Origin: a virus
Virus record (IMG/VR): IMGVR_UViG_3300042309_002578
Coordinates: 74,384-138,383 of that record
DNA length: 64,000 nt
Strand: one strand, 5' to 3'
Part shown: positions 17,687-64,000 of the stretch, one piece after another
How positions within the stretch are numbered: position 1 is the stretch's first letter
Layout: each line of letters begins with the position of its first letter
Notes under the pieces: generated by a model
Database searches by the model: none
Told to the model about the DNA's origin: nothing
The model's input: the letters and a program-made list of their open reading frames with translations, nothing else
Translations under genes and position numbers: made by a program

Positions 17687-17824
17687 ACTGATTTAATAAA
17701 CCATTTTGCATTTTGATTCCGATAAAATGCAAAATGGTTAAAAATCGGTGTAATAAAATAATACAAAGCGCGATACCGACACCTATCAATAGACAACAAA
17801 ATTGCGATCGCAACAACAAAAAAT

Positions 17825-18085: not shown

Positions 18086-18323
18086 GTGCAGCGAAACCTT
18101 TTAAGGACTAACAGCTACTGGAAGTTAGCCCTTAAAGAAAAAAGCATAATATTTAAGATTATGCAATTTTTTCTGTCAAATGGATTTTGTGAGCGAATCC
18201 CACGAAGCGGGTATTTTGCTTCTTGCTAAATTTCAAGAATTTAGACAGCTAACCCTAGCTCTATATTTATATTTCTTTCTTAGTTGTATTGCATATTTTT
18301 TCTTCTCGTGCTATAATTATATT

Positions 18324-42377: not shown

Positions 42378-42489
42378 AATATATTAGTGTTTTTTTAATT
42401 ATACACCTCGCAAATATTGTTGTCTATACTATTAATTTGTGTGATGCAATATTGTTGTAGTTAACTAAATTTTTGCAATATTGCCAACT

Positions 42490-43082: not shown

Positions 43083-43117
43083 AAAAAAGGATGCCACAAC
43101 TAAAGGCATCCTTTTTT
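43083..43117. terminator. Bidirectional terminator
   Basis: AAAAAAGGATGCC..GGCATCCTTTTTT between convergent genes. Confidence 0.8.
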
Positions 43118-44531
43118 ATGCCGGCGCATCTGCATTAGTCTCGACATTTTCTGTGTCTACCGCACTGCCTTCTTCATTTGTGGTCTGTTCTGTAGTGTCT
43201 TGTTCTTGGGAATCTTCTGTCCCGAACTGATCTAAGATAGTTTCTTCTTTTTGGAATGACCAACCCTTACCAAACGTCTTTTCTATTAGTTCTGGCTCTG
43301 GTGTTAGTCCAACTTGATTAATCATTACATTCCACCAGTCAGCTTTTGCTTTTAGCACCGTAATTTTGTGCGTTTCTTCTGCTTGCCTCTCCTCCTCCTG
43401 TTTCCTCTCTTCTTCTTTTGCGCTTCTGGTAATTTCCTTTTTAATTTCTTCGTTTGTTGTCCAGATTCTTATATCTGGGGAATTTGAGCCAGGATAATTA
43501 TATTCTTTAACTTTTTTCCAAATATTTTTAGTAAGACAATCATTCAGCAAGATGCAGTGTGCATCTATTACATTAGACTCTCTGTCATCATTTTGTGATA
43601 CTTGTGCATTGTAACTCCCGTGATCTGTAGCTGAAAGTGGCACTTCACTAAGCGCAGCCTTAGATATTTCTTTTGATGCTAGTTCTATAAGGTATTCAGA
43701 ATTTGTTAAAACCTCTTGTGGGAAAAGACTCTCTGCTTTATATCCTGGTGGACCAGTAAAATATCCATTGGGGGAAACGAGTCTTAAAAAGTTGCACCAT
43801 TTTACAAATCGTGGATCATTCTCTGCTACGCCTTCAGGGTTCTCGCCAACAATGGGTGGCGAACCAACTCTACCTGTTTGACGAATTATGTTATCTCTAG
43901 CCGCATTTTTTGTAATCCACCAAGGGTAAAATCTCCATCCAAGCCCAAGCCCGTATGGATAATACGAAGAGCCAAATGAATAAACAATAACGTCTCCATC
44001 TAGCAATCTTTCTCCTGTGACTGGCCTACGTTTTGTTAGTATTCTGATTTCATAACCCATGTGGGTTGCTATTTTTGTGTTTTTTTTAATTGGGCGATCG
44101 CTCTTATATATTGGAATGTCTTTGTTTGGGTTGGTGTTTGGCTGTACAAATATAAACCTCCACCAGGGTATAGACACAAATTCTGGATAAAGAACTGAGT
44201 CCTCATTTACCCACTCTTTTACACATAAAAATGCTACACCTATATAATGTGCATCTAGCAAGTCTGAACAAATTTTTGAATAATTAATTTTAGATAATAT
44301 TTTTTTTGCTATTTCTGCATTGTCCTTGTCTTTTTGGTCGTCGCTAAACGAATCTACTAATACTTGTCTGCCTGTTATAGTATTGTTAAGCTTGTTTAGT
44401 GTGCTTAGTATATGACAATCTCTTCGCATCTCTTCGTAATTTATTCTTAGGGAGATGTCCTGGGAATGAAGTAGCAAGGACGGGAAATAACCTGGATCGT
44501 CAGATGGTAATATTATTGGAGTTTGGTACAT
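43116..44531 (-). CDS. Portal protein (Mu gp29/DUF935-like)
   Basis: YEEMRRD.HI, DLLDA..G, PYGLGL..YP, EISKA.L, GSYNA; adjacent to head genes. Confidence 0.85.
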   Translation of the reverse strand: MYQTPIILPSDDPGYFPSLLLHSQDISLRINYEEMRRDCHILSTLNKLNNTITGRQVLVDSFSDDQKDKDNAEIAKKILSKINYSKICSDLLDAHYIGVAFLCVKEWVNEDSVLYPEFVSIPWWRFIFVQPNTNPNKDIPIYKSDRPIKKNTKIATHMGYEIRILTKRRPVTGERLLDGDVIVYSFGSSYYPYGLGLGWRFYPWWITKNAARDNIIRQTGRVGSPPIVGENPEGVAENDPRFVKWCNFLRLVSPNGYFTGPPGYKAESLFPQEVLTNSEYLIELASKEISKAALSEVPLSATDHGSYNAQVSQNDDRESNVIDAHCILLNDCLTKNIWKKVKEYNYPGSNSPDIRIWTTNEEIKKEITRSAKEEERKQEEERQAEETHKITVLKAKADWWNVMINQVGLTPEPELIEKTFGKGWSFQKEETILDQFGTEDSQEQDTTEQTTNEEGSAVDTENVETNADAPA

Positions 44532-44641: not shown

Positions 44642-46264
44642 ATGCAAACCTCACAAACATTAGATAAAAAAGCGCAACAAGAAGAATATCAAATAGAGAT
44701 ATTTGAGTCCGGTTCACACTTATCCGGAAATCACATCTCTAGGAATTATTCACGAGGCGATCTGCAAGATGTCGTTGACTCTTATGATCCGACATACTTC
44801 AAAGCTCCGCTTATATTTAACTACTACGCTGAAGACCCGCATTCCCCTATGGGATATAGCGACAGAGAGCTAGTAAAATCTCCGTTTGCGTTTGGATATC
44901 CTGAAAAATTATCTTTAAATGGGCAGAGACTTGTAGCTCATTTTAAAAATATCGCACCAGAATTTGTTGAAATGGTCAAAGAGCATAAAATCTTGGCTGT
45001 GTCTGCCAGTTTTTATCCAGAAAACAACCCATTTAATCCCACTCCAGGCAAACTTAGCTTGAGGCACGTTGCAGGTCTTGGTAGTGAGCCACCAGCCGTA
45101 AAAGGAATGCCTCTTGAGTTTAGCGAAGACTCGGATCTTTTGAGTTTTTCTAATTTTGCGGAGCATTCCTATGAACCATGCGAAGAAGAGACGCTTGACT
45201 ATAACTGCGCCTGTGACAAACTTAATTTATCTTTGCCTCCATTGCTGAATTTAATGACCAGGCAGAGAGAGCTTTTAATTGAGAGAATGGGTATAGATGA
45301 GGCTGACAAATATTTACCAAGGCTTTTGATTGACTCTTTGTCTGTTGCTCTTTCTGAGGATGAAGAATCTAGCGAGGATGAAGAATTCAGGGAGGAAGAT
45401 TCCTTGGGTGAAGATCCAGAAGATTCTCCACCTCCTGTGATTGATTCTGGGGCTATTTCTGATGTGTACTCGATATTGGTTGACCACACAGAAAAAGTCG
45501 CTGCTATATCTAACGGATTAAAGTATTCAATGAGTCAGATAATAGGAGTTAAGGGAGGATTAGACTCTTTGAACTCTGATTTTGAGTCTTTGGTTGATAT
45601 AGTAGATCAATCGTTTGAACAACTAAATAATCGTGTAGAATCTTTAATAGAGTTAGTATCAAGTTTATTCACAATAACTGAAGCTAAACAAAACGAAGTC
45701 AATAATTATCAGCCAGATATTAACGACAATTTGTCTAGTGGTTATTATCACCCTTATGTAGCCCCAAGTCCATCTGAAACTTTAGGATATAGCAAAGAAA
45801 TGACAACTCAAACCGGAGCTTTAGAATCTACTGTTGCTGCTCTAAAGTTAGAGCGAGATCAAGAAAAAAGAAAGAACTATGTTCGCAGTTTAATGAATTT
45901 TATGGAGACTCAGTGCAACGTACACCATAGGATTTTGCCAGCACAATTAGAAGAAGAAAAAGCATTTGTTTTAAGCTTGCTTGAATCTCAAGAAAAAGAG
46001 CCTATTGAATTTAGCGAAAACGCTGTTCTGCCTATCATTGAAAAATTCAAGAAAAATATTCAAAATCGCCAAGCAGTTTGGACACCAGAGCCAAGTGTTG
46101 TGATTGACAACGAAGATATTGTTCCTCGGAATTATTCTGAGGCAGAACTTTCTGCAAAAGCTCGACAACTAAAAGAGCAATACAAGAAGAAAGGTAAAAC
46201 AATCTCGTTGCACGAGGCTATTGATATGGTTGCTGGTGGAGAAATGCCGGAGTCAGAAGAATAA
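44642..46264 (+). CDS. Prohead protease/scaffold (Mu gpI-like)
   Basis: IEIF.SG.H, YDP...APL, VSASFY, LRHVAGLG..PPAVKGM; acidic scaffold region. Confidence 0.88.
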   Translation: MQTSQTLDKKAQQEEYQIEIFESGSHLSGNHISRNYSRGDLQDVVDSYDPTYFKAPLIFNYYAEDPHSPMGYSDRELVKSPFAFGYPEKLSLNGQRLVAHFKNIAPEFVEMVKEHKILAVSASFYPENNPFNPTPGKLSLRHVAGLGSEPPAVKGMPLEFSEDSDLLSFSNFAEHSYEPCEEETLDYNCACDKLNLSLPPLLNLMTRQRELLIERMGIDEADKYLPRLLIDSLSVALSEDEESSEDEEFREEDSLGEDPEDSPPPVIDSGAISDVYSILVDHTEKVAAISNGLKYSMSQIIGVKGGLDSLNSDFESLVDIVDQSFEQLNNRVESLIELVSSLFTITEAKQNEVNNYQPDINDNLSSGYYHPYVAPSPSETLGYSKEMTTQTGALESTVAALKLERDQEKRKNYVRSLMNFMETQCNVHHRILPAQLEEEKAFVLSLLESQEKEPIEFSENAVLPIIEKFKKNIQNRQAVWTPEPSVVIDNEDIVPRNYSEAELSAKARQLKEQYKKKGKTISLHEAIDMVAGGEMPESEE

Positions 46265-49779: not shown

Positions 49780-51258
49780 ATGTCTATCAGAGTTTTACCT
49801 TCGCGTCCAGGTGTATATATATCCGAACAAAGTGCTGGGACCCCGCCAATTAGTACGGCCTTATTTCAGCGCACATACCTTCTTGGAACTTCAACACAGG
49901 GGACTTTAGAGCCTTTTCAGTTAGGAAGTTACGATGATTTTATAAATTACTTTGGCAACAGTGAAACAGTTACCAAGAACACAATTAACACATATTTACA
50001 AAATACAAAGTTGGGGTTGTTTTTTGTAAAAGTTCCAGTTGCTTACACATCAGAAGTTACTCTTAGTGCCAAAACTACTGGCACAATATACAGCTTTAAG
50101 ATTGGAGACATTACATTTACAAGAACCGCGACTGAAACCGACACAATTGATAAAATAATTGACTATTTTATTGATGCCATAAACAATAGTTATGCCATCA
50201 ATAATGAAGTAATGGGGCATCATTTAAAAGATTCGCTTGGTGCTAACGATTATTCAGATAGTTCATTCATTGTCAGATCAATAAATGAACAAATATTTAC
50301 AATTACCGATCTGTCTGAGTATACGTCTCCATCTCTTCCCTCAACCACGAATATAAATTATTGGGATTATGTTGGGGCGACACAAAGAATTGCAAACTCG
50401 TATAAAAACGAAAGACAAGGCTTTCTGGTCTGCCCAGAAGCATTTTATAACATAGAAAGTTTACCCCAAAGAAATATAGTCGCTAATTCTATGGAGGTTG
50501 CAGCCCGTAATTTGGGTTGGATGGCGTTTATTGATGCTGGCTCTCCAGATATTGTGACTAGACCAAGCCAATTAACCGCAGAATTTGAAAACGTTACGTC
50601 TCCCACTGGGAATACCGCAGCGTACTATCCTTGGTTGATAGACCTAAATGACAACCACGTCAGTTTAGCCGCTATGACCGCTGGATATGCCTTGCAAAGA
50701 TTTGAGAAAGAGGGGATACAACACCCACCTGCCGGGAATTCATACCCGTTTGTAAATGTTTCTGGTGCGGCATTTAAGTTGTCAGACCCACAAAGAGATT
50801 TTATGGCAGATATTCGCGTTAATCCGTGTATATTTCGCAGAGGATTTGGTTACGTCCCCTATGATGTAAAAACACTTTCATTAAATACAGATTTTCGATT
50901 TATAAACCACCGCGTTATTTTTTCTTGCATTGAAAGAACAATTTTTGACACCATAGAAAACAGTAATACGCTACTTAGGGCTAATGGTGGTGCTGGAGCG
51001 TTTTATTTAACGCTCCGAAACATAATAATAGACATCCTTGACACTTTTTATAATGCTGGTGCATTATATGGATTAACAGCAAGAGATGCCTATAATTGCC
51101 GATGTGATGCGGGTATTCAAACTTCTGAAGCACTTGAAAGAGGTGTTGTGACTGCGTTAATTTACATAGTTCCAGCAAGCACGGTGAGACAAATAGATGC
51201 TGTTGCTTACCGTGTGAAAATTGGTGGTATTGCCCAGGCTATTTTACAAACTCTATAA
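49780..51258 (+). CDS. Tail sheath protein
   Basis: RPGVYISE, AYYPWL, HPPAG, VNP, RFINHR, YNAGALYG...AY..RCD. Confidence 0.93.
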   Translation: MSIRVLPSRPGVYISEQSAGTPPISTALFQRTYLLGTSTQGTLEPFQLGSYDDFINYFGNSETVTKNTINTYLQNTKLGLFFVKVPVAYTSEVTLSAKTTGTIYSFKIGDITFTRTATETDTIDKIIDYFIDAINNSYAINNEVMGHHLKDSLGANDYSDSSFIVRSINEQIFTITDLSEYTSPSLPSTTNINYWDYVGATQRIANSYKNERQGFLVCPEAFYNIESLPQRNIVANSMEVAARNLGWMAFIDAGSPDIVTRPSQLTAEFENVTSPTGNTAAYYPWLIDLNDNHVSLAAMTAGYALQRFEKEGIQHPPAGNSYPFVNVSGAAFKLSDPQRDFMADIRVNPCIFRRGFGYVPYDVKTLSLNTDFRFINHRVIFSCIERTIFDTIENSNTLLRANGGAGAFYLTLRNIIIDILDTFYNAGALYGLTARDAYNCRCDAGIQTSEALERGVVTALIYIVPASTVRQIDAVAYRVKIGGIAQAILQTL

Positions 51259-51272: not shown

Positions 51273-51689
51273 ATGTCAATTCAAAATGAGTCAGATTTTA
51301 TTGTTCAAATAGGGGGACCATTCCTCCAGTTAGCAGTCACAGAAAAGAGCGGGGGGGAGGTGTCGAGGGAAACAGCAAAATATCCAGACGCACTAAAGGA
51401 CAAAAGCTATTTCACCACCGGAAGGCGAATGATTAGTGACTTGGTTTTGCGTTTACCATACGATGCCGCTGATCATGAAATTTTGATTGAGGAAATTGAA
51501 AGCAGCTGTCAAGATCCATTTTCGATTGTTGTTCAAGCGGTAAAAAACTGCCCAGACGTAGAAAATTATGGTCCACCAGTTGTTTACAAAGGCTGCATTC
51601 TTTCTAAAATTAAGCGCCCAGATGTTAAGCGTGGTAGTGGTAGCGGAGTGGCAATGCTTGAACTTGAGTTTGCTGTTGGAGATTTATAA
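51273..51689 (+). CDS. Tail tube protein
   Basis: 138 aa directly after the sheath; SGGE, YKGC.L...PDV..GS..VAMLELE. Confidence 0.85.
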   Translation: MSIQNESDFIVQIGGPFLQLAVTEKSGGEVSRETAKYPDALKDKSYFTTGRRMISDLVLRLPYDAADHEILIEEIESSCQDPFSIVVQAVKNCPDVENYGPPVVYKGCILSKIKRPDVKRGSGSGVAMLELEFAVGDL

Positions 51690-51772: not shown

Positions 51773-53374
51773 GTGATATTTTCAAGTAAGCATCTTGAAG
51801 AAAAATTTAAAAACTTAGACACAGATGGTTTGACACCATTTGTGTCTGCTTTGGTTTTTGATATAGTAGATGAAAATTATGGGGGCGTAATTGAGAATTT
51901 AAATATAACCCATATAGAATTGCCAAATATTTCTGGATATTTTCACTCTCCAAGAGTAGGGAACAGGCGATTAAAAATAGATTTTTTAATCAATGGGAGC
52001 AACATAGTATTAACGCCACAAAACCTAGAAATAATTGACGACGATATAGAGAAAATATATCTTGCTGTAAGATCACTATCTTTTGGCAACATAAACAAAA
52101 CTAATTATCTTCCAATAGAATTCTTCAGTTTTGCTCAAAAGCAAATGAATTGCACAGTCGGGTGGTCTTGTAAGGGGCAAAATGGTTATGCTTGTCTGTC
52201 TAAATCAAAGAAAAATTGTAACAATGAGTTGAATCCAACTCACTCACAATATATGCAGTGGTTAGCAAAAAATGCTAGTGCCGAATCTGATTTATTTAAA
52301 GACTTAGAAAAAGCCGTAACTAAACCCGCAACTAAACCCGCAACTAAACCTGCAATTAAACCCACAACTAAACCTGCAACTAAACCTGCAACTAACCCCG
52401 CAACTAACCCCGCAACTAAACCTGCAACTAAATCTAAAGCAACAGTAAATTTACTTAGGAAAACAGGTAGAGGTGAGAAGTTGTTACAACCAGAAAATGA
52501 CGAAGATAAAAAATTGTTTAAGGATAATATAGACAAAGCAAGAAAAGAATTAAATTCTGAATTATCAGAAAATAAAGAAAAGTTAAAAAATAATCCAAAC
52601 AGCAAATATGCAACCAGGAAAATAAAAGAAATATCGGACAAACAAGATAGACTTGATGCCTACGAAAAGTCTGATAAAAACATCTCATTGCCGTCTGATT
52701 ACAGATTGTATAAAGTATCAGACATGGAATCAAAGGAGTATGAAGGTAGGCTTCTGTCTCAGCCAAACAGCAGGAGAGTGGTTGCGCTAAGTAGTGTTTC
52801 TGATGACTTACAGAAACAATACCCCAACATGACAAAAGCTGAATTAGCCTCTTTAAAAGTTTACACGCAAACAAGCTTTGATCACATGAACACGTATTTG
52901 CGAAATAACGAAGATTCTGAGGCTATTTATAAAATAGACATTATGAAATCTGCTGGAGAATATAGATCTAAGCATCAGCTAGAAAATGACACGATTGCCG
53001 ACATCAGGATGACGACATCCGCACTCAATAAATTGCCTGATTTTATTGGCACAGTTCTTCGAGGGACTAAAATGCCAAAAAATATGAGTAACTCAGATAT
53101 AGAAAATACGTACAAACCCGGTAGTATAATTACAGAAAAAAGTTTCACAAGTACATCTAGTTCCGGCGATCGCAAGTTTAGAGGAGAATTGCAGTATGTA
53201 ATTGAATCTAAAACAGGGAAAGATATATCAAATATTTCAGATAGTAGGCAAGAAAAAGAGGTTTTATTCAGACCAGGCACCAGTTTTAATGTGACTAGCT
53301 TTAAAAAATCTGATAGCGGGTATGAAATACACTTAAAAGAGGTTGACCCTGTAACTAAACCTGCAACCACCTGA
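51773..53374 (+). CDS. Effector A: shared leader + Cys4 motif + KPAT linker + VIP2/Alt-like ADP-ribosyltransferase
   Basis: VDENYGG leader; CTVGWSCKGQNGYACL..KKNC; ART YT...MN.YLR, VLRG, FTSTS, QEKEVLF (R-STS-ExE). Confidence 0.88.
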   Translation: MIFSSKHLEEKFKNLDTDGLTPFVSALVFDIVDENYGGVIENLNITHIELPNISGYFHSPRVGNRRLKIDFLINGSNIVLTPQNLEIIDDDIEKIYLAVRSLSFGNINKTNYLPIEFFSFAQKQMNCTVGWSCKGQNGYACLSKSKKNCNNELNPTHSQYMQWLAKNASAESDLFKDLEKAVTKPATKPATKPAIKPTTKPATKPATNPATNPATKPATKSKATVNLLRKTGRGEKLLQPENDEDKKLFKDNIDKARKELNSELSENKEKLKNNPNSKYATRKIKEISDKQDRLDAYEKSDKNISLPSDYRLYKVSDMESKEYEGRLLSQPNSRRVVALSSVSDDLQKQYPNMTKAELASLKVYTQTSFDHMNTYLRNNEDSEAIYKIDIMKSAGEYRSKHQLENDTIADIRMTTSALNKLPDFIGTVLRGTKMPKNMSNSDIENTYKPGSIITEKSFTSTSSSGDRKFRGELQYVIESKTGKDISNISDSRQEKEVLFRPGTSFNVTSFKKSDSGYEIHLKEVDPVTKPATT

Positions 53375-53532
53375 GTTCGACGTAAGAAAATCCGCTAGAA
53401 AGCAAGTGGGAAGAGAGTTAGAGAGTTAGAGACTTTTAGCCAAAGAAATTTTATTCTCAATAATTACTAATTATTGAGAAAAGTCTTACTATTACTCACT
53501 TTGAGCTTTTTAATTTAGGTCGAACTCAGGTG
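53368..53532. mobile_element. MITE with 14-bp terminal inverted repeats
   Basis: CACCTGAGTTCGAC ... GTCGAACTCAGGTG, 165 bp, no ORF; supplies the stop codon of effector A. Confidence 0.8.
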
Positions 53533-53781
53533 AATCCGCAGAAAATTTACTTAAAAAAACAGGGAAAACTCAATGAAAAACCAGAATAAATCAATAGAAA
53601 TTAATTCTTTTTTGCAAAGTCTTTATGAAGCGGAGCAAAATTTTACCCCAACGGTCAAACAAAAGCAAGAGAAATTGGTAGCCAACAAAACAAAGAAAAA
53701 TTAGGCACTGCAAGTAGTGTTTGACATTTTTGTTAAAACTTAGTGATAAAATAATTTTAATACACAACATCCTTTAAATAT

Positions 53782-54462
53782 ATGGCGAAGATTACAGAAG
53801 TAAACGACAACGAGCAAGAAATAGTGGCGACAAACATTTCTGAAAAAAATAAAGCCACTGCTCCCAACATTGAGTTGTTAAAATTTCAATTATCAAGTGG
53901 ACTGGACGCGGTTTTTAAGAAGCCTAACGCCGTTGATTTAATAGCAGCAGAAAAATTGCCAGGGGCTATATCTAGAACAGAGTCTGGCACTGGAATGACT
54001 ACGGCTATTTTTTATAGGGAAATCGGTAAAAGATGCTGCCTTTCTTGGGGAAAAGCAAAGAAAATACCGTCCGAGATTCGCAGTGGGGATGACTCGAAGC
54101 TGTCAGAGTTTTTCATGAAACTACTAAATGTAACCTATATTGAGTCAGGCAATTGCAGCATGGATGTCGAAGAAGAGGCAACAGAAAACGAAGCCGGAGA
54201 TAGATTTATCCCTAAAGAGGTCAAGCTTACAAATGGGGACACCGTGGTTTTTCGCCAGGTACTCAACAAAGATATTGAGCAAATAGAAAAAGTCAGTTCT
54301 ACTACTGCGATAACTAGCGTTGAGCAATATCTAAAGCTTGCTTGCCAAACAGTCACAAAGATTAATGGCAAGCCTACAAACTGGGCAGAAGTGCAAACAT
54401 ATTTTTATGAGCTTACAGGGGAGGACTATATCAGGGTTTATTTAACCCTGCGCTCGTTTTGA
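53782..54462 (+). CDS. Tail assembly chaperone (tandem domains)
   Basis: Two L..G..V.F/K....D repeats; first structural-type gene after the tube. Confidence 0.7.
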   Translation: MAKITEVNDNEQEIVATNISEKNKATAPNIELLKFQLSSGLDAVFKKPNAVDLIAAEKLPGAISRTESGTGMTTAIFYREIGKRCCLSWGKAKKIPSEIRSGDDSKLSEFFMKLLNVTYIESGNCSMDVEEEATENEAGDRFIPKEVKLTNGDTVVFRQVLNKDIEQIEKVSSTTAITSVEQYLKLACQTVTKINGKPTNWAEVQTYFYELTGEDYIRVYLTLRSF

Positions 54463-54718
54463 GTCCGAATGTGTTGCTTATTTTTTGAGTTCACGCGATC
54501 GCATTAGATTTAATAAAAATGAATGGCGCAAAGTTTTGAACCAAACGCCATTATTTATTAATTATGACAATTGGCTAGAGATAACTTTTCATCTTAATGG
54601 CGATAATTTTGCAAATTTAAAATACTGGCAAGAAATGTCATTTTTGAAGTGGCTAAAATTGCTTGCAGTTTACAACAAAATATCCAAAAAAATGGAGGAT
54701 AAAAATAATGAAAAATAG
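54458..54718 (+). CDS. Tail chaperone extension (gpT/E'-like), probably reached by +1 frameshift
   Basis: The +1 frame is open from 54446 across TTT-TGA with no ATG near its 5' end; WLEI..H..W.EM...W pattern. Confidence 0.55.
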   Translation, partial: FESECVAYFLSSRDRIRFNKNEWRKVLNQTPLFINYDNWLEITFHLNGDNFANLKYWQEMSFLKWLKLLAVYNKISKKMEDKNNEK

Positions 54719-55757
54719 CACGCTTGATTATGCGTCAGCTAAGAAAATAATACCCTTTTTTAACAAAAAACTTGGCATCGAGTATTTCCCAGGTGATAAA
54801 AGATTTGTGGGTACACCTCACGAAAGGGAGCTAAAAATTTGTTATGGGCATATCAGGGGATATGTTGGGGCGGACAAAGAAGCTCTTGATTGTTATGTTT
54901 CGCCCAGCTATATAGCAGACCCATCAAATGTTGGTCTGGTTTTTGAAATTGAGCAGCTTGACGGTGACGGAAATTTTGACGAGCATAAATACATGATTGG
55001 TTTTTTCACCGAATTAGAAGCCAAAGAAGCCTATTTAAGTGAAATGCCAGAGGATAGGTTTGGCGGAATCAAAGCAGTAGATACAGATCATATTGAAAAA
55101 AACAAGAGAAATTATGTTTTTTCGGAGCAAGATTTAAAAACTAGAATTAACGATAAATACAACTCATTAAGTGATACCGAAAAGCCCGATTTTATGGCAT
55201 CTATGGTTTATGAAATAGTTGATGAGAACTATGGAGGCAAGATACAAAATTTTAAGATTTTAGAGAAGCCAAAAGCTGGCTATATCATATCTGGAGGCTT
55301 TGAAACGCCACGTATGGGCGGTAAAAAACTAATAATGGGTTTTGATATAGATGATAGTAAAATCGTCTTAGCACCGCAGAATTTAGAGGTTTTAAACAAT
55401 AGCGAAAGCGGGTCTTTATATCTTTTGAGTCTGGGTTTAGTTAACTCTTTCTCAGAAAAAACCAACTACTATCCGATTGAGTTTTTCGACTTTGCACAAA
55501 AGCAGATGAATTGCACCGTTGGCTGGTCTTGTAAGGGTGAAAATGGTTATGCCTGTTTGTCTAAAATAAAGAAGAACTGTAACAACAATCTGAATCCTAA
55601 CCATAAAACATATATTAGCTGGCTAAAAGACCAAATAGGGAAAGGGGCTAAACTTCACAAGGGTCACATGGACGAAGCCAAGGCTCTTGGGATCATTAAG
55701 CCAACACCTACGAACAAACCTAATATTAAGCCAACACCTACGAACAAACCTAATTAA
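54708..55757 (+). CDS. Effector B 5' part: inorganic-pyrophosphatase-like domain + shared leader + Cys4 motif; frameshifted in its linker
   Basis: YGHIRG..GAD.EALDCYV and FDEHKYMIGF....AKEAYL; VDENYGG; the stop arises from a 2-bp deletion in a 30-bp repeat. Confidence 0.8.
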   Translation: MKNSTLDYASAKKIIPFFNKKLGIEYFPGDKRFVGTPHERELKICYGHIRGYVGADKEALDCYVSPSYIADPSNVGLVFEIEQLDGDGNFDEHKYMIGFFTELEAKEAYLSEMPEDRFGGIKAVDTDHIEKNKRNYVFSEQDLKTRINDKYNSLSDTEKPDFMASMVYEIVDENYGGKIQNFKILEKPKAGYIISGGFETPRMGGKKLIMGFDIDDSKIVLAPQNLEVLNNSESGSLYLLSLGLVNSFSEKTNYYPIEFFDFAQKQMNCTVGWSCKGENGYACLSKIKKNCNNNLNPNHKTYISWLKDQIGKGAKLHKGHMDEAKALGIIKPTPTNKPNIKPTPTNKPN

Positions 55758-56375
55758 GCCAACGCCTACGAACAAACCTAATATTAAGCCAACGCCTACT
55801 AATAAACCTAATATTAAGCCAACACCTACGAATAAACCTGATATTAATCCAACATCTACGAATAAACCTGATATTAATCCAACATCTACGAATAAACCTG
55901 ATATTAATCCAACATCTACGGTTAAACCGGACATCTACGGTTAAACCGGACGACAACCCCGCACCTAAATCACCCCAAAACAATGGTAAATTCCCAGATA
56001 ATTTAGACAGTCTTGTTGTTGTCAAAAAACTTGGTGGTACAACAGGCGCAAAGCTAGTTAAAGACCCCGCAACTAGTAAACAGTATGTGATGAAAAATGG
56101 CAACAGTCCAGAGCATTTGGAAAATGAGGCGATCGCAGATAGTGCATACCAAGCTCTAGGCATCAACGTCCCTAATCACAAAGTCTACAAAGATGCCAGC
56201 GGTAAGCCCACGAAGCTTGCTGAATATATAGAAGGCAGGGATAGAGTGTTTGGGACATATTTTAATAGCACCGACCCAGGAAGCGACAGAACTCCATTTT
56301 TTGATGATAATGAAAATGAGTTTTTAGTAATGCTTGAAGGTATTAAATCTAAGCACATATCCTCAAGAGCCAAAA
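55694..56375 (+). pseudogene. Effector B 3' part: IKPTPTNKPN repeats + internally deleted kinase/ART paralog of effector C
   Basis: Two frameshifts (about 55752, and a 19-bp duplication at about 55913-55950); KFPDNLD..AEYIEGRD is joined directly to RVFG..ENEF..KSKHISS, i.e. the two ends of effector C. Confidence 0.8.
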
Positions 56376-56402
56376 AAGCAATACTGATTAAATCGCAATT
56401 CG

Positions 56403-56786
56403 TTATTTGGTTAATTTTCCTGCCTCTTTTGTTATTTCCCCCAAATCTTTTTTAATTTCATTCCACTGCTTAACGTGTTCTTCATTTTGATATTTTTCTG
56501 ATATTTCTATTGGCAGTTTTGTTGATTTCAAAAATAATGCCCAAAAAATCCCAAAAAGTTTGCTGTCTGGTTCGTGTTGACCCTTAGCAAGATCCCGCTG
56601 AATAAAAAATAGTGTTGGCAACAAGTCTTCGTCTTTTATTTCTTTTCCGTCCATCAATTGTTGGTAATTTTTGTAATCACTAAAGTCTTTGTTGTCTTCT
56701 CTGTACGTATAGCCGTCAAATCTTAGAGCAAATATGGTAACGGCTTCAAATAAATCTGTAAAATCAGAATAATCTAGGTTTTGCAT
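56403..56786 (-). CDS. Small convergent partner protein (candidate inhibitor/immunity)
   Basis: 127-aa ORF duplicated together with the kinase/ART gene. Confidence 0.75.
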   Translation of the reverse strand: MQNLDYSDFTDLFEAVTIFALRFDGYTYREDNKDFSDYKNYQQLMDGKEIKDEDLLPTLFFIQRDLAKGQHEPDSKLFGIFWALFLKSTKLPIEISEKYQNEEHVKQWNEIKKDLGEITKEAGKLTK

Positions 56787-56931
56787 TTTATTTCTTTTTT
56801 ATTTGTCTTTTTATTGTACTGTTTTGTAGACAAAAAACAAACATAAATAAATAGCAATTTAAAAACATGATACAATAACTATATTATCTCTGCTTAACTT
56901 ACTGTATACAGTCATTTATTTAAACAAGAAT

Positions 56932-58785
56932 ATGAAAAATCTAGATGTTTTAAATCAAAGCGAAAATGAATCTTTGTGCTTTTTGAGCTTAGGACTAGTT
57001 AGTTCTTTTTCGGAAAAAACAAATTATTATCCGATAGAATTTTTTAAGTTTGCTGAAAAGCGGATGAACTGCACTATTGGGTGGTCTTGTAAAGGCGAAA
57101 ACGGATATGCTTGCTTGTCTCGTGCTAAAAAAAATTGCTTCAGTAGCTTGAGTCAAAATCATGTCACTTATATTGACTGGCTAAAAGATCAAAAGAATAA
57201 AAATAAAGCCATAGTTAAGCCAGCGGACAAGCCAGAATTTAAAAACAATAGCAAGTTCCCAGACAATTTAGATAATCTTGTCGTTGTCAAAAAACTTGGT
57301 GGCACGACAGGCGCACAACTCGTCAAAGATCCTGTGACTGGCAAGCAGTATGTGATGAAAAATGGCAGCAGTCCAGAGCATTTGGAAAATGAGGCGATCG
57401 CAGATAGTGCATACCAAGCTCTAGGCATCAACGTCCCTAATCACAAAGTTTACAAAGATGCCAGCGGTAAGCCAACGAAGCTTGCTGAATATGTAGAAGG
57501 CAGGGATTTAGCCGAGATAAATAAAAACGGGACACAACAAGAAAAAGACTTAATCAAGAGCGAGATTAAAAAACATTTTGCTGCGGATGCACTTTTGGGT
57601 AATTGGGATGTTGTTGGACTAGAAAAAGACAACATTATGCTTGGCAACGATGGCAAGGTTTACCGGATAGACAATGGCGGTTCTCTTGGTTATCGAGCGC
57701 AGGGTGCTAAAAAAGATTCTAAATTTTGGAACAAATACCCGCTGGATTTATGGAGCATGAAAGATACAAAAGTGAACCCAGATGGTGCAGAATATTTTGG
57801 TAAATTAACACACAAAGAGGTAGTAACCCAAATAAATGATTTGGTTAGCAAGAAAGACAACCTTAATGGCATTTTCAGCAAAGAAGATCAAGAAATAATA
57901 GGTAGTAGACTTGATGAAATGAAGCGAGTCGCAGACATCAGCAAGACTCTAGATGACGACAAATGGAATGATGATTATATCGGCAACTTTACAAGACACA
58001 CTGTAGGAATAAGAGCAGCAGGAATTACAGAAAAATTCCCGAAAGAATTTAAACAAAAATCAAAAGACTTTGACTCCGCAGATTTTACAAAAGTTGTTGA
58101 TGAAAATGACAAAGAATTTGATAATTTGCGCGGCTCGGACTCAACAATGTACGATTTTCAGAAGTATGTGAACAATGATAGTGGTGGTGGCGATTATGGT
58201 ATCTTAGAAAGCTGGATGGCTGGACAAGGAAATACGTCTTGGGGAAGATACCCAAGAGCAGCGAAGTATTTTATGTCAAAACAAAGAAATGTTCCTCCCG
58301 AAGATTTGTATTGGAAGGGCAAATTTAGTCGTGCTATTTCAGAGAACCAATATAAAGCTGTTTCGGAAAATCAGAAAAAGGGACATACAAAAGAGATATA
58401 TAATAACACTTTGACGGCGTATCACGCATTTACTTATGAGATGCTGTCAAAAACTGATTTTCCCAACAAAAACAAAGATGGCACTATAACTTTACTTCGC
58501 ACAGAGGGCAAAAATGTTACAGACATCTATAACTCAAAAGTTGGAGACGACAACTCATATATAAAACGTGGCTCAATGGAATCTACGTCCATATTCAAAG
58601 AAGTATATGTCGCTAGTACAACAGAGCTAACTTCGCAGGTTGTGCCAATTCATAGGGTATTCGGCGCATATTTTCACGAAGCTATCCCAGGAAGCGGAAA
58701 AACACCATTTTATGGCGACAAGGAAAATGAGTTTGTGGTAATGCTTGAAGGAATTAAATCCAAGCATATATCTTCAAAGGCGTAA
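56932..58785 (+). CDS. Effector C: partial leader + Cys4 motif + PI3/4-kinase/HipA-like domain + probable ART domain
   Basis: KLGGTTGA..YVMK..ENE, DALLGNWD..DN, RIDNGGSL; C-terminus LLRTE..ESTS..ENEF. Confidence 0.8.
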   Translation: MKNLDVLNQSENESLCFLSLGLVSSFSEKTNYYPIEFFKFAEKRMNCTIGWSCKGENGYACLSRAKKNCFSSLSQNHVTYIDWLKDQKNKNKAIVKPADKPEFKNNSKFPDNLDNLVVVKKLGGTTGAQLVKDPVTGKQYVMKNGSSPEHLENEAIADSAYQALGINVPNHKVYKDASGKPTKLAEYVEGRDLAEINKNGTQQEKDLIKSEIKKHFAADALLGNWDVVGLEKDNIMLGNDGKVYRIDNGGSLGYRAQGAKKDSKFWNKYPLDLWSMKDTKVNPDGAEYFGKLTHKEVVTQINDLVSKKDNLNGIFSKEDQEIIGSRLDEMKRVADISKTLDDDKWNDDYIGNFTRHTVGIRAAGITEKFPKEFKQKSKDFDSADFTKVVDENDKEFDNLRGSDSTMYDFQKYVNNDSGGGDYGILESWMAGQGNTSWGRYPRAAKYFMSKQRNVPPEDLYWKGKFSRAISENQYKAVSENQKKGHTKEIYNNTLTAYHAFTYEMLSKTDFPNKNKDGTITLLRTEGKNVTDIYNSKVGDDNSYIKRGSMESTSIFKEVYVASTTELTSQVVPIHRVFGAYFHEAIPGSGKTPFYGDKENEFVVMLEGIKSKHISSKA

Positions 58786-58825
58786 TTTATTTGACTGTTT
58801 TTTAATCTAGGATATCTACTTTATC

Positions 58826-59201
58826 TCCCTATTTGGCTAATTTTCCCGCCTCTTTTGTTATTTCACCCAAGTCTTTTTTAATTTCATTCCGTTGTTTGAT
58901 GTATTTTTCGTTTTGATATTTTTCTGGTATTTCTGCTGTTAGTTTTATTGATTTCAGAAATATTGTCCAGAACCCTTTAAAAAGTTTGGCTTCACGTTGA
59001 CCTTTGGCTAGATCCCGCTGAAGGAAAATAGTGTTGGCAACGACTCTTCGTCTTTTATTTCTTCGCCATCCATCAATTCTTTGTATTTTTTATAGTCATC
59101 AAACCCTTCTTCTTTCCTGTATTTATATCCATCAAGTCTCAAGGCGTACATAGTCGCCGCTTCAAATAAATCTGTGGTATCAGAGTAATTTAATTTCCCA
59201 T
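58826..59201 (-). pseudogene. Frameshifted paralog of 56403-56786
   Basis: Reads YSDTTDLFEAATMYALRLDGYKY..KDEESLPTLF, with frameshifts after the ATG and near 59025. Confidence 0.8.
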
Positions 59202-59450
59202 TTTATTTTGTTTAATTTTTTCTTTTCTTCTTGCATTTATAATACTATTTTTAAGCAAAAAAGCAAGCATTAAAATCACTTTTTAGTAATACAAATTACG
59301 TAGACAAATTTAATAATACCGACATAAATACAGAATAAGGAAATTTTATGTTGCAATTTGCTGTTATTAACGGCGACAAAAACAAATGGGTATGATACAA
59401 TTTTGTAAATATACTTTACTTAAATAGCAGACAATACATTTATAAGCGCA

Positions 59451-62408
59451 ATGAAAAACGTAATTACACAAGACTCAATTACCAGCAAATACAACTCTTT
59501 GAATAGCAAGTCAGAAAAATTAAGATTCATGCAAAAAATGGTCTACGAAATGGTAGACGAAAACTATGGTGGCAAAATAGAAAATTTTAATATTTTGGAA
59601 AAACCTAACCCTGGACACATAATATCTGGCTTTTTTGAAACTCCGCGTATGGGAGGAAAAAGACTGATAATGGGCTTTGATATTGACAAAGACAAAATTG
59701 TCTTAGCACCTCAAAATATAGATGTTTTAAGTCACTCCGAAGAGAGTGAGACATATTATGTGACAATGAAAATGGCTCTGGAATTTTCAGAAAAAGTTAA
59801 CTATTTACCCCTAGAATTTTTCAACTTTGCTCAAAAGCAAATGAATTGCACAAAGGGCTGGTCTTGTAAAGGTCCGAATGGTTTTGCCTGTTTGTCTCAA
59901 AACAAGAAAAACTGTAACAATGCTCTTAATCCTGCTCACGCAACTTATGCCGGATGGCTTGCAAATCAAATAAACACAGGAGCTAGTTTACATAGTTCAC
60001 ACATGGCAAACGCATCAACGCTTGGCATAACCAAAACTACCCCTGCCCCAGCACCTGCCCCAACACCTGCCCCAACACCTGCCCCAACGCCAGCCCCAAC
60101 ACCTGCCCCAACACCTGCCCCAACGCCAGCCCCAACACCTGCCCCAACACCTGCCCCAACATCAACTATTGGAACAAAAATTAATGCTTTAAAAAGCAAA
60201 ATTCTTGGGAAAAAGAATCCTAATAAAAACCCAACGAATGGAAAAGGGCTTGTTGATACAAGGAACGAACTGATACAAAATGCGGGACAAAAAGCAGTAG
60301 AAGATGCTGAAAATAATGTCAAAAAAATACTAGATTCAAATGATACGCAGCCATTTATCAGAGTTGGAGAAATCCAGACACTAGAACTTATTTTGGGTTC
60401 TGAATTTAAAAATGCTCACCAGCTTGGTAAAACTACTCACAATATTCCAGATTTACTTGACACAAATTATTTGACTGCGCGGAGTCGTGTTGAAAAACTT
60501 ATTAATGGCATACCAACAAATACTTCTGGTACAGATCGACCTATTTCTGCATACTTGGGAAGCAATGATTTAAATGGCAAATCTCACCAAGATATAGCCA
60601 AGGTCTACGGTTCAATTTCTGTGAAATTGAAAAAAGATGCCGTTAAAGACAGAATGACATTTACTGCAAGCGACTCGTTTAGGTCTGGGTATGCAAGCGA
60701 TGTCACAAATAATGGTAATCCTCCACCACCAGATGCTTCTAGTTTGATCCCTATGACAAGGCATGGGTATAAGCGAGATAAGCTTTTGTCCCATGTTTCG
60801 ACTGGGGACGATAAGGATATTTTAGAGAAAGCCGCAAAAGCCAAAAATATTGATGATTTGTCAAGAATTACAGACGGTACTTCGGCGGGTGCAGGTAAAA
60901 AATATGTTGAAGCCCAGGTTCACGGTGGTGTAAAACCCTCAGATATTGCCGAGATTCATTTTGCACCCAAAAATAATACAGATCAGCCAACTCCTGCGAT
61001 CGCCACATGGGCAAAGAAAAATGGTGTCGACATATTTATCAATGGTAAAAAAGCTGATTTAGACAAAATAATTAAAGCACCTCCAGCAACAAACCCACAC
61101 CAAAACATTGCAGACGCGATTAAAAATGGAGACATAGATGCTCTTGGCACGTTCGCCGAAAAACTAGAAAAAGAGACTGAAGCCTTAGTTACGGCGCATA
61201 ATAGTAACCCAAATAATGTCAAACTTGCCAGCAAAAACGACACAATTGCATACACTTTGGCTGAGAAGCGTGGGTTTAACACCAAGCCACAAATTGGTAC
61301 TGTAGCTGAAATTGATAATATTGCCCAAAATGGCGGAACTTTAACATTCAGGGGGATGGGTTCTCAAAAAAGATTTGACACATTTAAAAATGGCGACAAT
61401 TTTCTAGCTACAGGCGCAGATGGAAACAATATGTATGGAAGTGGTATATATGTCGCTTCCCTTTTTGATCCGTCTCCAACTGGGAGTAAGGCTCAAGCCG
61501 CACACGCAGTGCTTTATGGAAACAAATACTCCAATCCCGGTGCTTCACCCACTGACAGCGCAACCGCAAGAATGGTAACGAGCGCAGACTTCAAGTGGGG
61601 AGACCATAAAAAGAACAAGCAAGATGTAGTAAAACTTGAGTCGCAACTTGAAAAATGGCTTGCACAAAAGGAAAACGATGCAAAAACGCAATATCCTGCG
61701 GGTGCGGCTGGCGCGGCAAATTTTAGTCCACTCACAGAGAGCCAGTTGAAGGCAGACCCAGCGCACTCTTTACTACACAGCACTATAAGGAACAATATCT
61801 CTAATACATTTAACTCTAAGTTAACTGTCACGCCTACAAAAACAAAAATAGCATCATCTCCAACAGGAAATGAAAGGTACGAAATCGAATTCAACAAAAA
61901 ACAAAGTAAATCTGCTCAACAATTTTTTAACACCAAAATCAATGGACTGTTTTATGATTTAACCCCACCTAAGTTCACGATTGAAAAAGTTGGGAATGGA
62001 AAATATGAGTACACCAGAAGAGATGGCTTAAAAGTAGTTCAAAGCTACAAGGATACTATAGCCGAGGCAAAAAATGATCACTCTTATATAGAGGCAGTTA
62101 GGGCGCACAACGAGTATTTGAAAGCTACGTTAGGTATGTCTCCTGTCTCGCCACAAGCTCAAAAAATAATCAATCAAGCAAGAGAAACTCATGACAGAAT
62201 TAGAGACGTTTTCATAGGTGATATTACCTATAGCAATAAAACATCTGGTAGGCTGGCTCTCATTCAAGGTTATGATGGGTTAAGACTAGACGAAAGTTAT
62301 CAGCCAAACAATTTCGGGCTTGTTTTTAACAGAGGCAAAATGACCGTTCAAAATGATCAGATGGATAACAACAATTTAGACAAAGAAGCGAGAGGAACTT
62401 TGAAATAA
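59451..62408 (+). CDS. Effector D: shared leader + Cys4 motif + (PAPT)n + DUF3626-like domain + PARP-like ART domain
   Basis: VDENYGG; [24 protein letters not shown]; then TFRG, MYGSGIY, GYDG, LVFNR. Confidence 0.75.
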
Positions 62409-62455
62409 TCAGACGAGGAACAAATTAGGCAAACAAACAAAAGGAACTTTATAGC

Positions 62456-62806
62456 ATGACCACCGAACTTGGAATTGACAAAACTTTGTCCAAATTATTT
62501 CCACAATGCAGCGGTTCTGCGTGGGAAATGTACATGACAGGGCTAAATGGCGGAAAGAGCCAATACGAATATGAGTTTTCTAAGGCACTAAAAGATCACA
62601 CTTACGAAAATCTTAACGAAGACACTAAACAGTATATAGCAAATTGTCAGGAATCTAATAGAATAGCCAAAGAAAAAGGCATTAACTTGAGAAAGACTGT
62701 AGATAAAGATGTTATGGATAGGCAGATTCGTGAAATTTGTAGTGAAGTAACAAAAAATCTACCTGATGCAAGGACAGAAGACGAGAAGAAAGTTGTTTTT
62801 GATTAG
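62456..62806 (+). CDS. Small protein downstream of effector D
   Basis: AAGGAA RBS; 116 aa; hairpin at 62845-62891. Confidence 0.7.
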   Translation: MTTELGIDKTLSKLFPQCSGSAWEMYMTGLNGGKSQYEYEFSKALKDHTYENLNEDTKQYIANCQESNRIAKEKGINLRKTVDKDVMDRQIREICSEVTKNLPDARTEDEKKVVFD

Positions 62807-62934
62807 ACTTCAGATAATGTTGGCTATTCTGTTTTGCTTTTGTGTTATTCAGTAGTTATTATCCTCTATATTATGATAACTACTGAATAACGCAAAGTTA
62901 GGTAGTAAAATAAAAGTAACTAAAAACAAAAAAA

Positions 62935-63198
62935 ATGCAAATAGCAAGCAAAGAAGATTACCCAAACGCTCAATGGGTAGAAACCCCGTTTAAAATCGGC
63001 ACTAGAGGCGGCATGGACTTATATTATCTGGGAAAAGACACAGTTGATAGAGATAATTTGGTCGCCACACGCTACAACAATAGTGAGCCATTAGAGCCAG
63101 TTGATTTAGGTAGTTTATTAAAGTGGTCACAAGAACCAATTACTATTGATAAACAGCACGAAAAACTGCTATCAATGAATATTGATCAAGAGATTTAG
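62935..63198 (+). CDS. Small hypothetical protein
   Basis: 87 aa, followed by a 42-bp palindrome. Confidence 0.65.
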   Translation: MQIASKEDYPNAQWVETPFKIGTRGGMDLYYLGKDTVDRDNLVATRYNNSEPLEPVDLGSLLKWSQEPITIDKQHEKLLSMNIDQEI

Positions 63199-63238
63199 TA
63201 ATCAATTGGTATAGTAATTACTATACCAATTGATTACT
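63197..63238. repeat. Perfect 42-bp palindrome
   Basis: AGTAATCAATTGGTATAGTAA|TTACTATACCAATTGATTACT. Confidence 0.85.
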
Positions 63239-63262
63239 CGTTTAAGTACGTTATAAATTATT

Positions 63263-64000
63263 ATGAAAAACACAATTACACACAATACAATTACCAAAAA
63301 ATATGACTCTTTAGGTAGCGAGTCTGATAAATCAAGATTTATGCAAATGATGGTCTACGAAATTGTAGACGAGAATTATGGGAGCAAAATAGAGAATTTT
63401 AATATTTTAAAAAATCCCAACCCTGGATACATAATATCCGGGATTTTTCAAACGCCGCGCATGGGTGGCAAAAAGCTAATAATGGGTTTTGATATTAGCA
63501 AAGATAAAATTGTCCTAACACCCAAAAACAGAGAGGTTTTAACCTATTCTGAACAAGACGTAGTGTATATTGCGTCTTTGCAAATAGCACTTTATTTATC
63601 CGAGAAAGTTAACTATTTACCATTGGAATTTTTTAACTTTGCTCAAACACAAATGAATTGCTCAAAAGGCTGGTCTTGTAGGGGTCCAAATGGTTACGCG
63701 TGTTTGGCACAAAGCAAGAAAAACTGCAACGTCCAACTAGATACCGTACACAAAACTTATTCTGGATGGCTTGCAGATAAAATATCAAGCGGGACTAAAT
63801 TACACAACACGCTGTCCTTCATAGCAAATAGAGCTAAATCAACACCCACAGCAACATCTACAGCAGCACCAGCAGCTAAATCAACACCCACAGCAACATC
63901 TACAGCAGCACCAGCAGCTAAATCAACACCCACAGCAACATCTACAGCAGCACCAGCAGCTAAATCAACACCCACAGCAACATCTACAGCAGCACCAGCA
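63263..64000 (+). CDS. Effector E (runs off the window, absent from the ORF track): shared leader + Cys4 motif + 14-aa linker repeats
   Basis: MKNTITHN..VDENYGSKIENF..FFNFAQTQMNCSKGWSCRGPNGYACL..KKNC, then AKSTPTATSTAAPA repeats (42-bp unit). Confidence 0.9.
   Translation, partial: MKNTITHNTITKKYDSLGSESDKSRFMQMMVYEIVDENYGSKIENFNILKNPNPGYIISGIFQTPRMGGKKLIMGFDISKDKIVLTPKNREVLTYSEQDVVYIASLQIALYLSEKVNYLPLEFFNFAQTQMNCSKGWSCRGPNGYACLAQSKKNCNVQLDTVHKTYSGWLADKISSGTKLHNTLSFIANRAKSTPTATSTAAPAAKSTPTATSTAAPAAKSTPTATSTAAPAAKSTPTATSTAAPA

Follow-up and report, generated by a model that had tools for sequence, protein, structure and literature searches.

A phage gene array that joins an unnamed carrier module to variable, putatively injected enzymes

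Enzymes injected by phages decide the first minutes of an infection. To our knowledge, the way in which such enzymes are addressed to the particle is known for few systems only, namely the capsid targeting sequence of phage T4, MuF/gp7 and Dar of phage P1. The T4 protein Alt and the internal proteins IPI-III are late-made, head-packed and injected enzymes, including an ADP-ribosyltransferase (ART), and carry a short N-terminal capsid targeting peptide that is removed by the prohead protease. In other phages, ARTs, kinases and the InPase domain fused to MuF or to the portal have been read as head-packaged, injected effectors, as set out in the main texts of PMC5512222, PMC5576092 and PMC9503650. 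According to the main texts of the latter two, MuF polymorphic toxins and MuF-fused ARTs combine a constant N-terminal carrier with variable C-terminal enzymes, and delivery together with the DNA has been proposed. Polyvalent proteins, from which InPase (PF18823) was described, unite InPase, ART, truncated kinase, methylase, zincin and ParB domains, are also found as portal or MuF fusions, and are accompanied by cassette-like smaller genes near the main polyvalent locus (main text of PMC5512222). Here, we describe an array of five phage genes (A to E) in the IMG/VR virus record IMGVR_UViG_3300042309_002578, in which one shared module, hereafter called the carrier, precedes different C-terminal domains (tips). 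The window, i.e. the whole stretch of 64,000 nucleotides that was analysed, is the final 64 kb of a single contig of 138,383 bp, which is classed as linear and is 83% complete according to CheckV. Positions refer to the window unless stated otherwise.

The array comprises the following features:

51773..53374, plus strand: gene A, 533 aa, with the carrier in residues 1 to ~175, a (KPAT)n linker at 52310-52432 and an ART tip in residues ~349-524
54708..55757, plus strand: gene B in truncated form, with an InPase domain, the full carrier, the start of a KPTPTNKPNI repeat linker and a premature stop
55758..56455, plus strand: out-of-frame remnant of B, with the rest of the repeat, a 19-nt duplication, a kinase fragment and the end of the tip
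56932..58785, plus strand: gene C, 617 aa, with the last ~44 aa of the N-domain, the four-cysteine module (residues 45-69), a short linker and a two-part tip
59451..62408, plus strand: gene D, 985 aa, with the full carrier, a (PAPT)n linker at 60042-60161, a DUF3626-like region in residues ~267-547 and a C-terminal domain in residues 555-985
63263..64000, plus strand: gene E, 5' part only, with the full carrier followed by a 42-nt repeat linker at 63832-64000

The array is genuine and lies well above chance expectation. Using the D leader as tblastn query, A, B and E were recovered with E-values of 4e-51 to 4e-90 and C with 5e-30, and exactly five carrier copies were detected in the 138-kb contig. 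The carrier is composed, in this order, of an N-domain, a flexible EF-x-FA junction and a four-cysteine (Cys4) module. The alignment showed the complete N-domain module (~120-125 aa) in A, B, D and E, just its final ~44 aa in C, and the motif MNC-x2-GWSC-[KR]-G-x-NG-[YF]-ACL-x3-KKNC in all five genes. Conservation extends past this motif to L-x3-H-x2-Y-x2-WL, and 32 columns are invariant across the five copies. Gene A starts with GTG at 51773 and gene B with ATG at 54708, inside an open reading frame (ORF) that opens with TTG at 54663; the B orthologs P0003 and P0035 begin at the position matching this ATG. The Pro/Thr linkers behind the carrier are true tandem repeats that differ from gene to gene according to TRF (A, 12 nt x10; B, 30 nt x7.9; D, 12 nt x10; E, 42 nt x4 or more). 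Their copy number also differs from that of near-identical orthologs (533 aa in A versus 513 aa in P0004), and the E repeat differs between the orthologs P0001 and P0155. Between the helix of the Cys4 module and the linker, most carriers contain the stretch G-x2-L-H-x2-H-x-[DE]-E-A-x-K-L-G-[IL] (seen in P0007-P0014, B and D, absent from A and C), which may be a docking or cleavage motif.

A first-pass annotation, made from the sequence alone, had described at least five genes with a common module (partial in C), a shared Cys4 motif and gene-specific repeat linkers, located behind the tail tube gene. The ORFs and the alignment bear out the five starts and the module, and the alignment likewise places the motif in every gene. 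The repeats were recovered by TRF, with the addition that C has none, and sheath and tube genes do precede the array. Five copies are present, but not five working genes, as B is a pseudogene or truncated form here.

The carrier matched no Pfam, NCBIfam or PHROG model; where A to D were matched, it was in the tips, in the InPase domain or in the repeats. The earlier statement that the leader belongs to no named family therefore stands, no characterised family having been hit in these three collections. A profile built from the five copies retrieved 32 proteins from 1.84 billion representatives, of which 15 span the whole carrier (E-values of 2e-40 or lower), 16 contain the Cys4 part only and one (the repeat protein P0017) is spurious. 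All 15 full-length homologs keep the four cysteines, the G-W, the H and the Y. In these homologs the tips are preceded by a low-complexity linker and vary as anticipated: we found ARTs (A and P0004, P0009, P0013), the combination of InPase, kinase and an R/STS/ExE domain (P0003, P0035), an N6-methyltransferase (P0011; MTS, 5e-7), zincin-like tips (P0008 at 3.7e-4, which is under the cut-off, and P0006 by its HExxH motif only), and a J domain (P0012 at 1e-3, under the cut-off, with HPD present). Besides these, contig L005 of a Rhizonema metagenome-assembled genome (MAG) has a carrier with a double ParB_N domain (1.2e-9) as its tip. Some full-length homologs end in tips without a recognised family.

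All carriers seen so far come from phages, or from phage-like contigs, of cyanobacteria that are filamentous and often form blooms. The Rhizonema MAG contains three carrier genes on three short contigs. Among 401 genomes sampled from its cyanobacterial order, three had any match and the full carrier was present in that MAG alone. A scan of IMG/VR with a carrier pattern matched 117 stretches, none of which was confirmed; the same scan yielded two loci in genome contigs (one Rhizonema MAG) and one in metagenome contigs (L007), where a carrier-methyltransferase gene lies directly upstream of the terminase genes. Neither the D leader (tblastn) nor the structural block (blastn) had a match among 50,697 phage records. 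Since relatives of the carrier and the portal occur in the Rhizonema MAG and structural relatives in Nodularia phages (see below), the host is most likely a filamentous cyanobacterium. Contig L006 of the MAG also contains two stand-alone J-domain ORFs (174-452 and 1656-2126, with a YHPD motif) directly upstream of a carrier gene with a J domain (2168-3307); they resemble spare cassettes.

An AlphaFold2 (AF2) model of the carrier based on 17 sequences (pLDDT 78.8, pTM 0.74) predicts two helices, a four-stranded sheet and a long helix for residues 1-116, and three short strands bearing the cysteines, followed by a helix, for residues 137-175; the EFFNFA junction (residues 122-129) is modelled with very low confidence. 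The Cys4 module is probably a zinc knuckle, because its four invariant cysteines are part of a lysine-rich cytoplasmic mini-domain.

Turning to the tips, that of A matches Pfam ADPrib_exo_Tox (5.1e-10) and ART (6.8e-7), both above the cut-offs, and contains the residues R (LRG), TSTS and E-K-E; a match to the NCBIfam XopAI model (3.6e-16) is far under the cut-off of that model. Judged by these matches and residues, it is an arginine-type (R-S-E) ADP-ribosyltransferase, as had been proposed for an R-STS-ExE signature. Gene B begins with an InPase domain (PF18823, 1.2e-22) and is intact in relatives (P0003, 881 aa; P0035, 898 aa with the same repeat, standing for 26 member sequences), where the domain order is InPase, carrier, linker, kinase and R/STS/ExE domain. 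In the window, B shows a 2-nt loss in the third 30-nt repeat leading to a stop at 55755-55757, a 19-nt duplication at 55912-55951 that shifts the frame a second time, and a direct fusion of the parts corresponding to C residues 95-192 (86% identity) and 575-617, as seen with tblastn and a three-frame reading. All three lesions are identical, without any differences, in contigs of four runs from four studies, which argues against an assembly error. The pyrophosphatase-like N-terminus that had been assigned to B is thus real, while the intact kinase and ART gene is broken here by frame shifts and a deletion. Because the intact B orthologs have the order InPase-carrier-linker-kinase-R/STS/ExE, gene C is a 5'-truncated duplicate of B. 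With B decayed and C a truncated duplicate, the family is in turnover through duplication, recombination and variation of the number of repeats.

The genotype including the decayed B is widespread and stable in lake metagenomes. The stretch 55300-56900 recurs, with 0.96-0.98 of the sampled words, in 16 DNA runs that belong to 11 studies of metagenomes from lakes and fresh water (2016-2024); 13 of these 16 runs are flagged as possible sources of the record. Four RNA runs contained just 0.05-0.10 of the sampled words, from which no claim on expression is drawn. A 127-aa ORF on the minus strand (56403-56786), without a family match, lies between the B remnant and C.

The tip of C consists of a kinase fold (residues ~106-340), a helical middle part and a domain with R, S-T-S and E-N-E (residues ~520-617). 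In an AF2 model of residues 100-617 (pLDDT 89, pTM 0.90), the first ~235 residues adopt a protein-kinase-like fold, for which Foldseek on the PDB returned at least 500 kinase matches at E<=1e-3, with Helicobacter pylori CtkA as the best (9e-6). VIA aligned 207 residues of CtkA at an rmsd of 3.6 (Z 13.2), and all 50 listed rows were of kinase type over model residues 7-233, among them Rio, actin-fragmin kinase, CotH, PI4KII and HipA. Invariant in 27 C-tip homologs are a glycine-rich loop (LGGxTGA), K, E, D..N and D-N-G, as well as R, S-T-S and E-N-E. According to the model, the region is an atypical protein-kinase fold, and it fits the truncated kinase of phage polyvalent proteins as given in the main text of PMC5512222. 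The C-terminal ~100 residues are likely an ART, judged by the motifs together with a language-model and structure lead: Atlas neighbours of the C tip include ART-bearing clusters (a lead only), and kinase matches filled both fold-search lists. Consequently, of the kinase and ART that had been assigned to C, the kinase-like fold is supported by the model and by invariant residues; for the ART the motifs are present, and Pfam and hhalign did not find the fold. Searches of C, D, the tip profile and the DUF3626-like part of D against PDB sequences (phmmer, hmmsearch) gave low-complexity or chance rows only.

This kinase and ART-like pair is widespread and unstudied: at least 332 homologs of the C tip (residues 100-617) were found. 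A manual count among the 120 listed gave 73 with Phage_Mu_F, one with Portal_Mu, 13 with NUDIX and two with InPase; those with Phage_Mu_F are named SPP1 gp7 family head morphogenesis or minor capsid protein by their sources. A Cys4-like module precedes the C-type tip in 9 of the 120 (8 of the 119 proteins P0033-P0151 by regular expression, plus P0003). In P0036, the order is Mu-type portal, Cys4 module and C-type tip; in P0037 (Nostoc linckia), P0038 and P0043 the tip follows an N-domain of the Nodularia type plus Cys4, and in P0039 Cys4 alone. At the sequence level, one tip therefore rides on four carriers (MuF, portal, Cys4, N-domain plus Cys4), two of which are known head parts. Independently of this tip, the Cys4 module alone stands behind Portal_Mu domains in P0018, P0025 and P0027 (1e-95 to 3e-75). 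It also starts small proteins with J-domain, InPase or HExxH tips.

A further link to the head comes from Nodularia phages (Ravarandavirus). Compared with BFVD, the carrier model matched Nodularia phage proteins (best E-value 5.5e-5, probability 1.00), and Nodularia phage proteins are named in four of the eight best rows. The relatives in vB_NspS-kac65v151 (MK605242) are gp012, gp019 and gp025, annotated as hypothetical, DUF3626 or ParB, with the architecture N-domain, Cys-rich motif, basic linker and tip (DUF3626, ParB). Three to four copies occur per genome, between the portal gp014 and the prohead protease gp030, and the InPase protein gp017 adjoins the set in MK605242. An hhalign comparison of the carrier with these proteins (P 7e-4, 114 colinear columns) lends weak support. 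The two groups share the order of N-domain, Cys-rich part, linker and variable tip, several copies per genome, a conserved small ORF, a filamentous cyanobacterial host and a DUF3626-like domain that is 45.6% identical between D and gp019. They differ in that carrier identity is ~15%, the cysteine spacing is another one, and the Nodularia phages are siphoviruses with the genes between portal and prohead protease. As far as term searches show, the papers naming these phages do not describe the module.

The structural genes around the array are arranged as follows:

43116..44531, minus strand: Mu-type portal gene (Pfam Portal_Mu, 3.7e-31)
44642-46264: prohead protease gene in the head module
49780..51258, plus strand: tail sheath gene (PHROG 17610 and 23; 9e-23 and 3e-22)
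51273..51689, plus strand: tail tube gene (PHROG 5102, 1.9e-6)

The contig also encodes a scaffold protein, a major head protein and a Mu gp36-like adaptor. MuF (PF04233) had no match across the whole contig in six frames, and neither PF04233 nor PF06152 matched A to E at E<=0.1. Hence, the array lies outside the MuF family, and the presence of a Mu-type head module (portal, Mu gp36-like adaptor) without MuF leaves a vacancy that the carrier could fill. The head is indicated by four independent lines: the carriers found before the C tip, the fusions of Cys4 to portals, the Nodularia relatives and the Mu-type head that lacks MuF.

Taken together, we consider the array to be, probably, a paralogous family of virion-carried, injected effectors in which the carrier stands in for MuF. 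The earlier suggestion of a constant packaging or delivery module with interchangeable enzymes gains support from this comparative evidence, i.e. the varied tips and the exchange of carriers. Since the genes belong to the late structural block, their products would be made with virion parts; the tips are enzymes that need cytoplasmic co-substrates, which we count in favour of injection. The same context bears on the alternative that the proteins are not packaged but act as cytoplasmic enzymes made during infection, the shared module serving regulation, oligomerisation or localisation. Such a role would accommodate a carrier without a recognisable fold, whose full form is present in just 1 of 401 genomes sampled from one cyanobacterial order and offers little context, and it gains from the fact that packaging itself is only inferred. 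Against it stand the position of the genes within the late block of structural genes and on their strand, the fusion of the same tips to structural head proteins and the covalent joining of Cys4 to portals, and we regard it as rather unlikely.

If the effectors are virion cargo, they could also be loaded into or onto the tail (tube lumen or tip) during assembly and be expelled ahead of the DNA; in phage Mu, the tail-associated gpN enters with the DNA. The genes of the array directly follow those for sheath and tube, and the place usual for chaperones is taken by two unannotated ORFs with a possible site for a +1 shift. A tape-measure gene was not identified in the contig (83% complete) and may follow E. 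However, carrier relatives belong to head or packaging modules, between portal and protease in the Nodularia phages and upstream of the terminase genes in L007, and some of these phages are siphoviruses; moreover, the partners to which Cys4 and the C-type tip are fused, portals and MuF, respectively, are head components. The hint of delivery by the tail that lies in the location in the tail operon is thus not supported. We therefore consider the tail route unlikely, and among the two routes for virion cargo the head is strongly favoured.

Several observations weigh against the favoured reading. The array is located after sheath and tube and, at a distance of 7-19 kb, does not adjoin the portal, and the ORF pair in the chaperone position lies among them. 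The contig, which is ~83% complete, ends within E. The carrier model has no match to a solved fold: the best Foldseek hit on the PDB had an E-value of 0.23, with nothing usable, and the best hit of a wide VIA search a Z of 6.1, which is within the noise and does not imply a novel fold; structure therefore gives no clue to what the carrier does. At the sequence level, the Nodularia proteins are only weakly connected to it (hhalign probability 26%), and the link comes mostly from predicted structure and architecture. Regarding the ART-like part of C, no Pfam ART family matched in the 27 C-tip homologs, and an hhalign comparison with A-type ARTs was not significant (E 0.67). Finally, the case for virion packaging is a comparative one. 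A predicted complex of a portal monomer with the carrier (scores 0.00 and 0.00) gave no verdict and is uninformative either way.

In the mechanism that we propose, an exposed [LIV]-[ED]-F-x-x-F-A junction would connect the small alpha/beta N-domain of the carrier to its basic knuckle of four cysteines, behind which a helix lies, and the carrier would be joined by a flexible Pro/Thr linker to one to three enzymes acting in the host cytoplasm. These would be an arginine-type ADP-ribosyltransferase, an atypical protein kinase, an InPase, a DUF3626-like domain and a further domain without a family. The carrier would direct the proteins into the particle, most likely to a site close to the portal within the Mu-type head, and so do the job of MuF or of a direct portal fusion in other phages. 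Together with the DNA, the enzymes would pass out through the tail, and they would modify host proteins as soon as the next infection begins. A bolder version, which we put forward as a tentative possibility, is that N-domain, junction and Cys4 form an autonomous, transferable module for capsid loading and ejection that has replaced MuF in phages with Mu-type heads infecting filamentous cyanobacteria. In that case, the N-domain might dock to the portal or the prohead core, and the knuckle might bind zinc and the DNA end, so that the cargo would leave with the genome. Any enzyme behind the carrier would then be delivered to the host, making it a natural programmable protein-injection tag. More generally, the finding is a compact, conserved and unnamed carrier on several different enzymes within one genome, and since other phages use MuF or the portal to carry these enzymes, the question of addressing becomes testable.

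Compared with MuF systems, the array has in common that its kinase and ART-like tip is fused to MuF in 73 of the 120 listed homologs. It differs by a carrier made of an unrelated N-domain and the Cys4 knuckle without a MuF domain, by five paralogs per genome instead of one gene, and by its position: MuF toxin genes are found directly downstream of the portal, whereas the array begins at 51773 after sheath and tube, with the portal on the minus strand. The phage is probably lytic, unlike the temperate phages with MuF toxins. In contrast to the short, cleaved targeting peptide of T4, the array has a folded module of 125-175 aa, for which cleavage is not known.

Some members of the array also fall within the description of polyvalent proteins. 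At least two effector domains per polypeptide are present in C (kinase fold and R/STS/ExE domain), in the B orthologs (these two plus InPase) and in D (DUF3626-like and a second domain), and the genomic setting is that of a portal-terminase phage with late context (Portal_Mu, large terminase, late structural block). The B orthologs, C and D thus fit the definition of small polyvalent proteins. A zincin-like metallopeptidase, which serves self-processing and is frequent, though not universal, in polyvalent proteins, was not found in A to E with Pfam; an HExxH tip is present in the relatives P0006, P0008, P0026, P0029 and P0031. The array differs in that its enzymes are spread over several genes, each repeating one carrier, rather than combined in one giant polypeptide, and in that carrier and Cys4 match no Pfam model, including the LPD families of PMC5512222 that are present in Pfam. 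The word 'cysteine' is absent from the main text of PMC5512222. As far as term searches show, the carrier, Cys4 as a joint between portal and cargo, and an array of paralogs repeating a carrier do not occur in the main texts of PMC5512222, PMC5576092 and PMC9503650, or in the papers naming the Nodularia phages.

The tips of D and E are less clear. The match of D to Pfam DUF3626 (PF12294) has an E-value of 0.0031 and 17.0 bits, compared to a cut-off of 27; the Nodularia homolog, gp019, was annotated 'DUF3626 domain-containing protein' by its depositors, and Atlas structure rows for the D tip include DUF3626-bearing clusters. SopF of Salmonella is an ADP-ribosyltransferase. DUF3626 is given as a domain of this protein in the text of PMC6682159. 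The C-terminal domain of D (555-985) has only four homologs, all in relatives of this phage, and no match in Pfam, NCBIfam or PDB sequences, leaving the earlier label 'PARP-like' without support from a family. An hhalign comparison with A-type ARTs was not significant (E 0.36), and the best Atlas feature match of the D/E C-terminal domain, 0.88 to an ART-PolyVal cluster, can serve only as a lead. E lacks its tip solely because the contig stops within its 42-nt repeat; the orthologs P0155 and P0001 continue into a paralog of the D C-terminal domain (59% identity). The carrier that had been assigned to E is therefore confirmed, and the tip that had been left as unknown can now be assigned through its orthologs.

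The following small ORFs accompany the array:

53782..54462, plus strand: 226-aa ORF between A and B, in the chaperone position, without a family match
54485-54718, plus strand: 77-aa ORF in the +1 frame after the 226-aa ORF
62935..63198, plus strand: 87-aa ORF after D (BLASTP, 38% identity and E-value 2e-10 to kac65v151 gp020)

In the Nodularia phage kac65v151, the matching small ORF (L008 14353-14688) follows the DUF3626 gene as well, which suggests that a DUF3626-type tip and the small ORF form a conserved pair. Judged from this conservation, the 87-aa ORF may be a candidate immunity protein or chaperone partner of the DUF3626-like tip. Immunity would be expected if the array were a polymorphic toxin-immunity system as proposed for the MuF toxins of temperate phages, with tips directed against competing bacteria or superinfecting phages and small downstream ORFs providing immunity. 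The variable, toxic-type tips behind a constant N-terminus and the two small ORFs after D, one of them conserved beside the Nodularia DUF3626 gene, agree with such a system, and small ORFs follow most MuF toxin genes according to the main text of PMC5576092. On the other hand, A and C have no such small ORF downstream on the same strand, no integrase or lysogeny genes were seen among the ORFs annotated, which cover only part of the contig, and the full carrier, present in 1 of the 401 cyanobacterial genomes sampled, gives no sign of a common prophage. This makes a toxin-immunity system very unlikely in our view, and injected virion effectors remain the reading that we favour.

The 226-aa ORF, called a tail chaperone in the first-pass annotation, had no match in Pfam, PHROG or NCBIfam. 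It ends with ...TCG TTT TGA G, where the +1 frame opens and runs to 54718, and a hairpin is visible by eye upstream (54432-54450). TTT-TGA-G may be the +1 frameshift site of a G/GT-like chaperone pair.

The window further holds baseplate wedge and tail fibre genes away from the array, and the other half of the contig encodes the large terminase and replication genes. A DNA polymerase gene is present in the contig, too, and a reading of the array as cargo of an extracellular contractile injection system (eCIS/PVC type) was dropped, as the contig has portal, terminase, capsid and DNA polymerase genes. A gene for a ClpP-family protease (42481-43029; Pfam CLP_protease, 1.8e-20) adjoins the portal gene, and the head module may thus contain two proteases, of the ClpP family and the prohead type. 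Two large proteins were considered as tape measure and rejected. The first, of 1205 aa (14665-18282 of the genome), has no family match and appears beta-rich and fibre-like by eye. The second, of 1249 aa (317-4066, minus strand), looks like a hub or lysin: it contains domains of the GH19-type lysozyme and M23 peptidase kinds, together with a weak match to a Mu gp44-like hub domain. Its gene is distant from those for sheath and tube, and the protein probably serves as a baseplate hub or pierces the cell wall.

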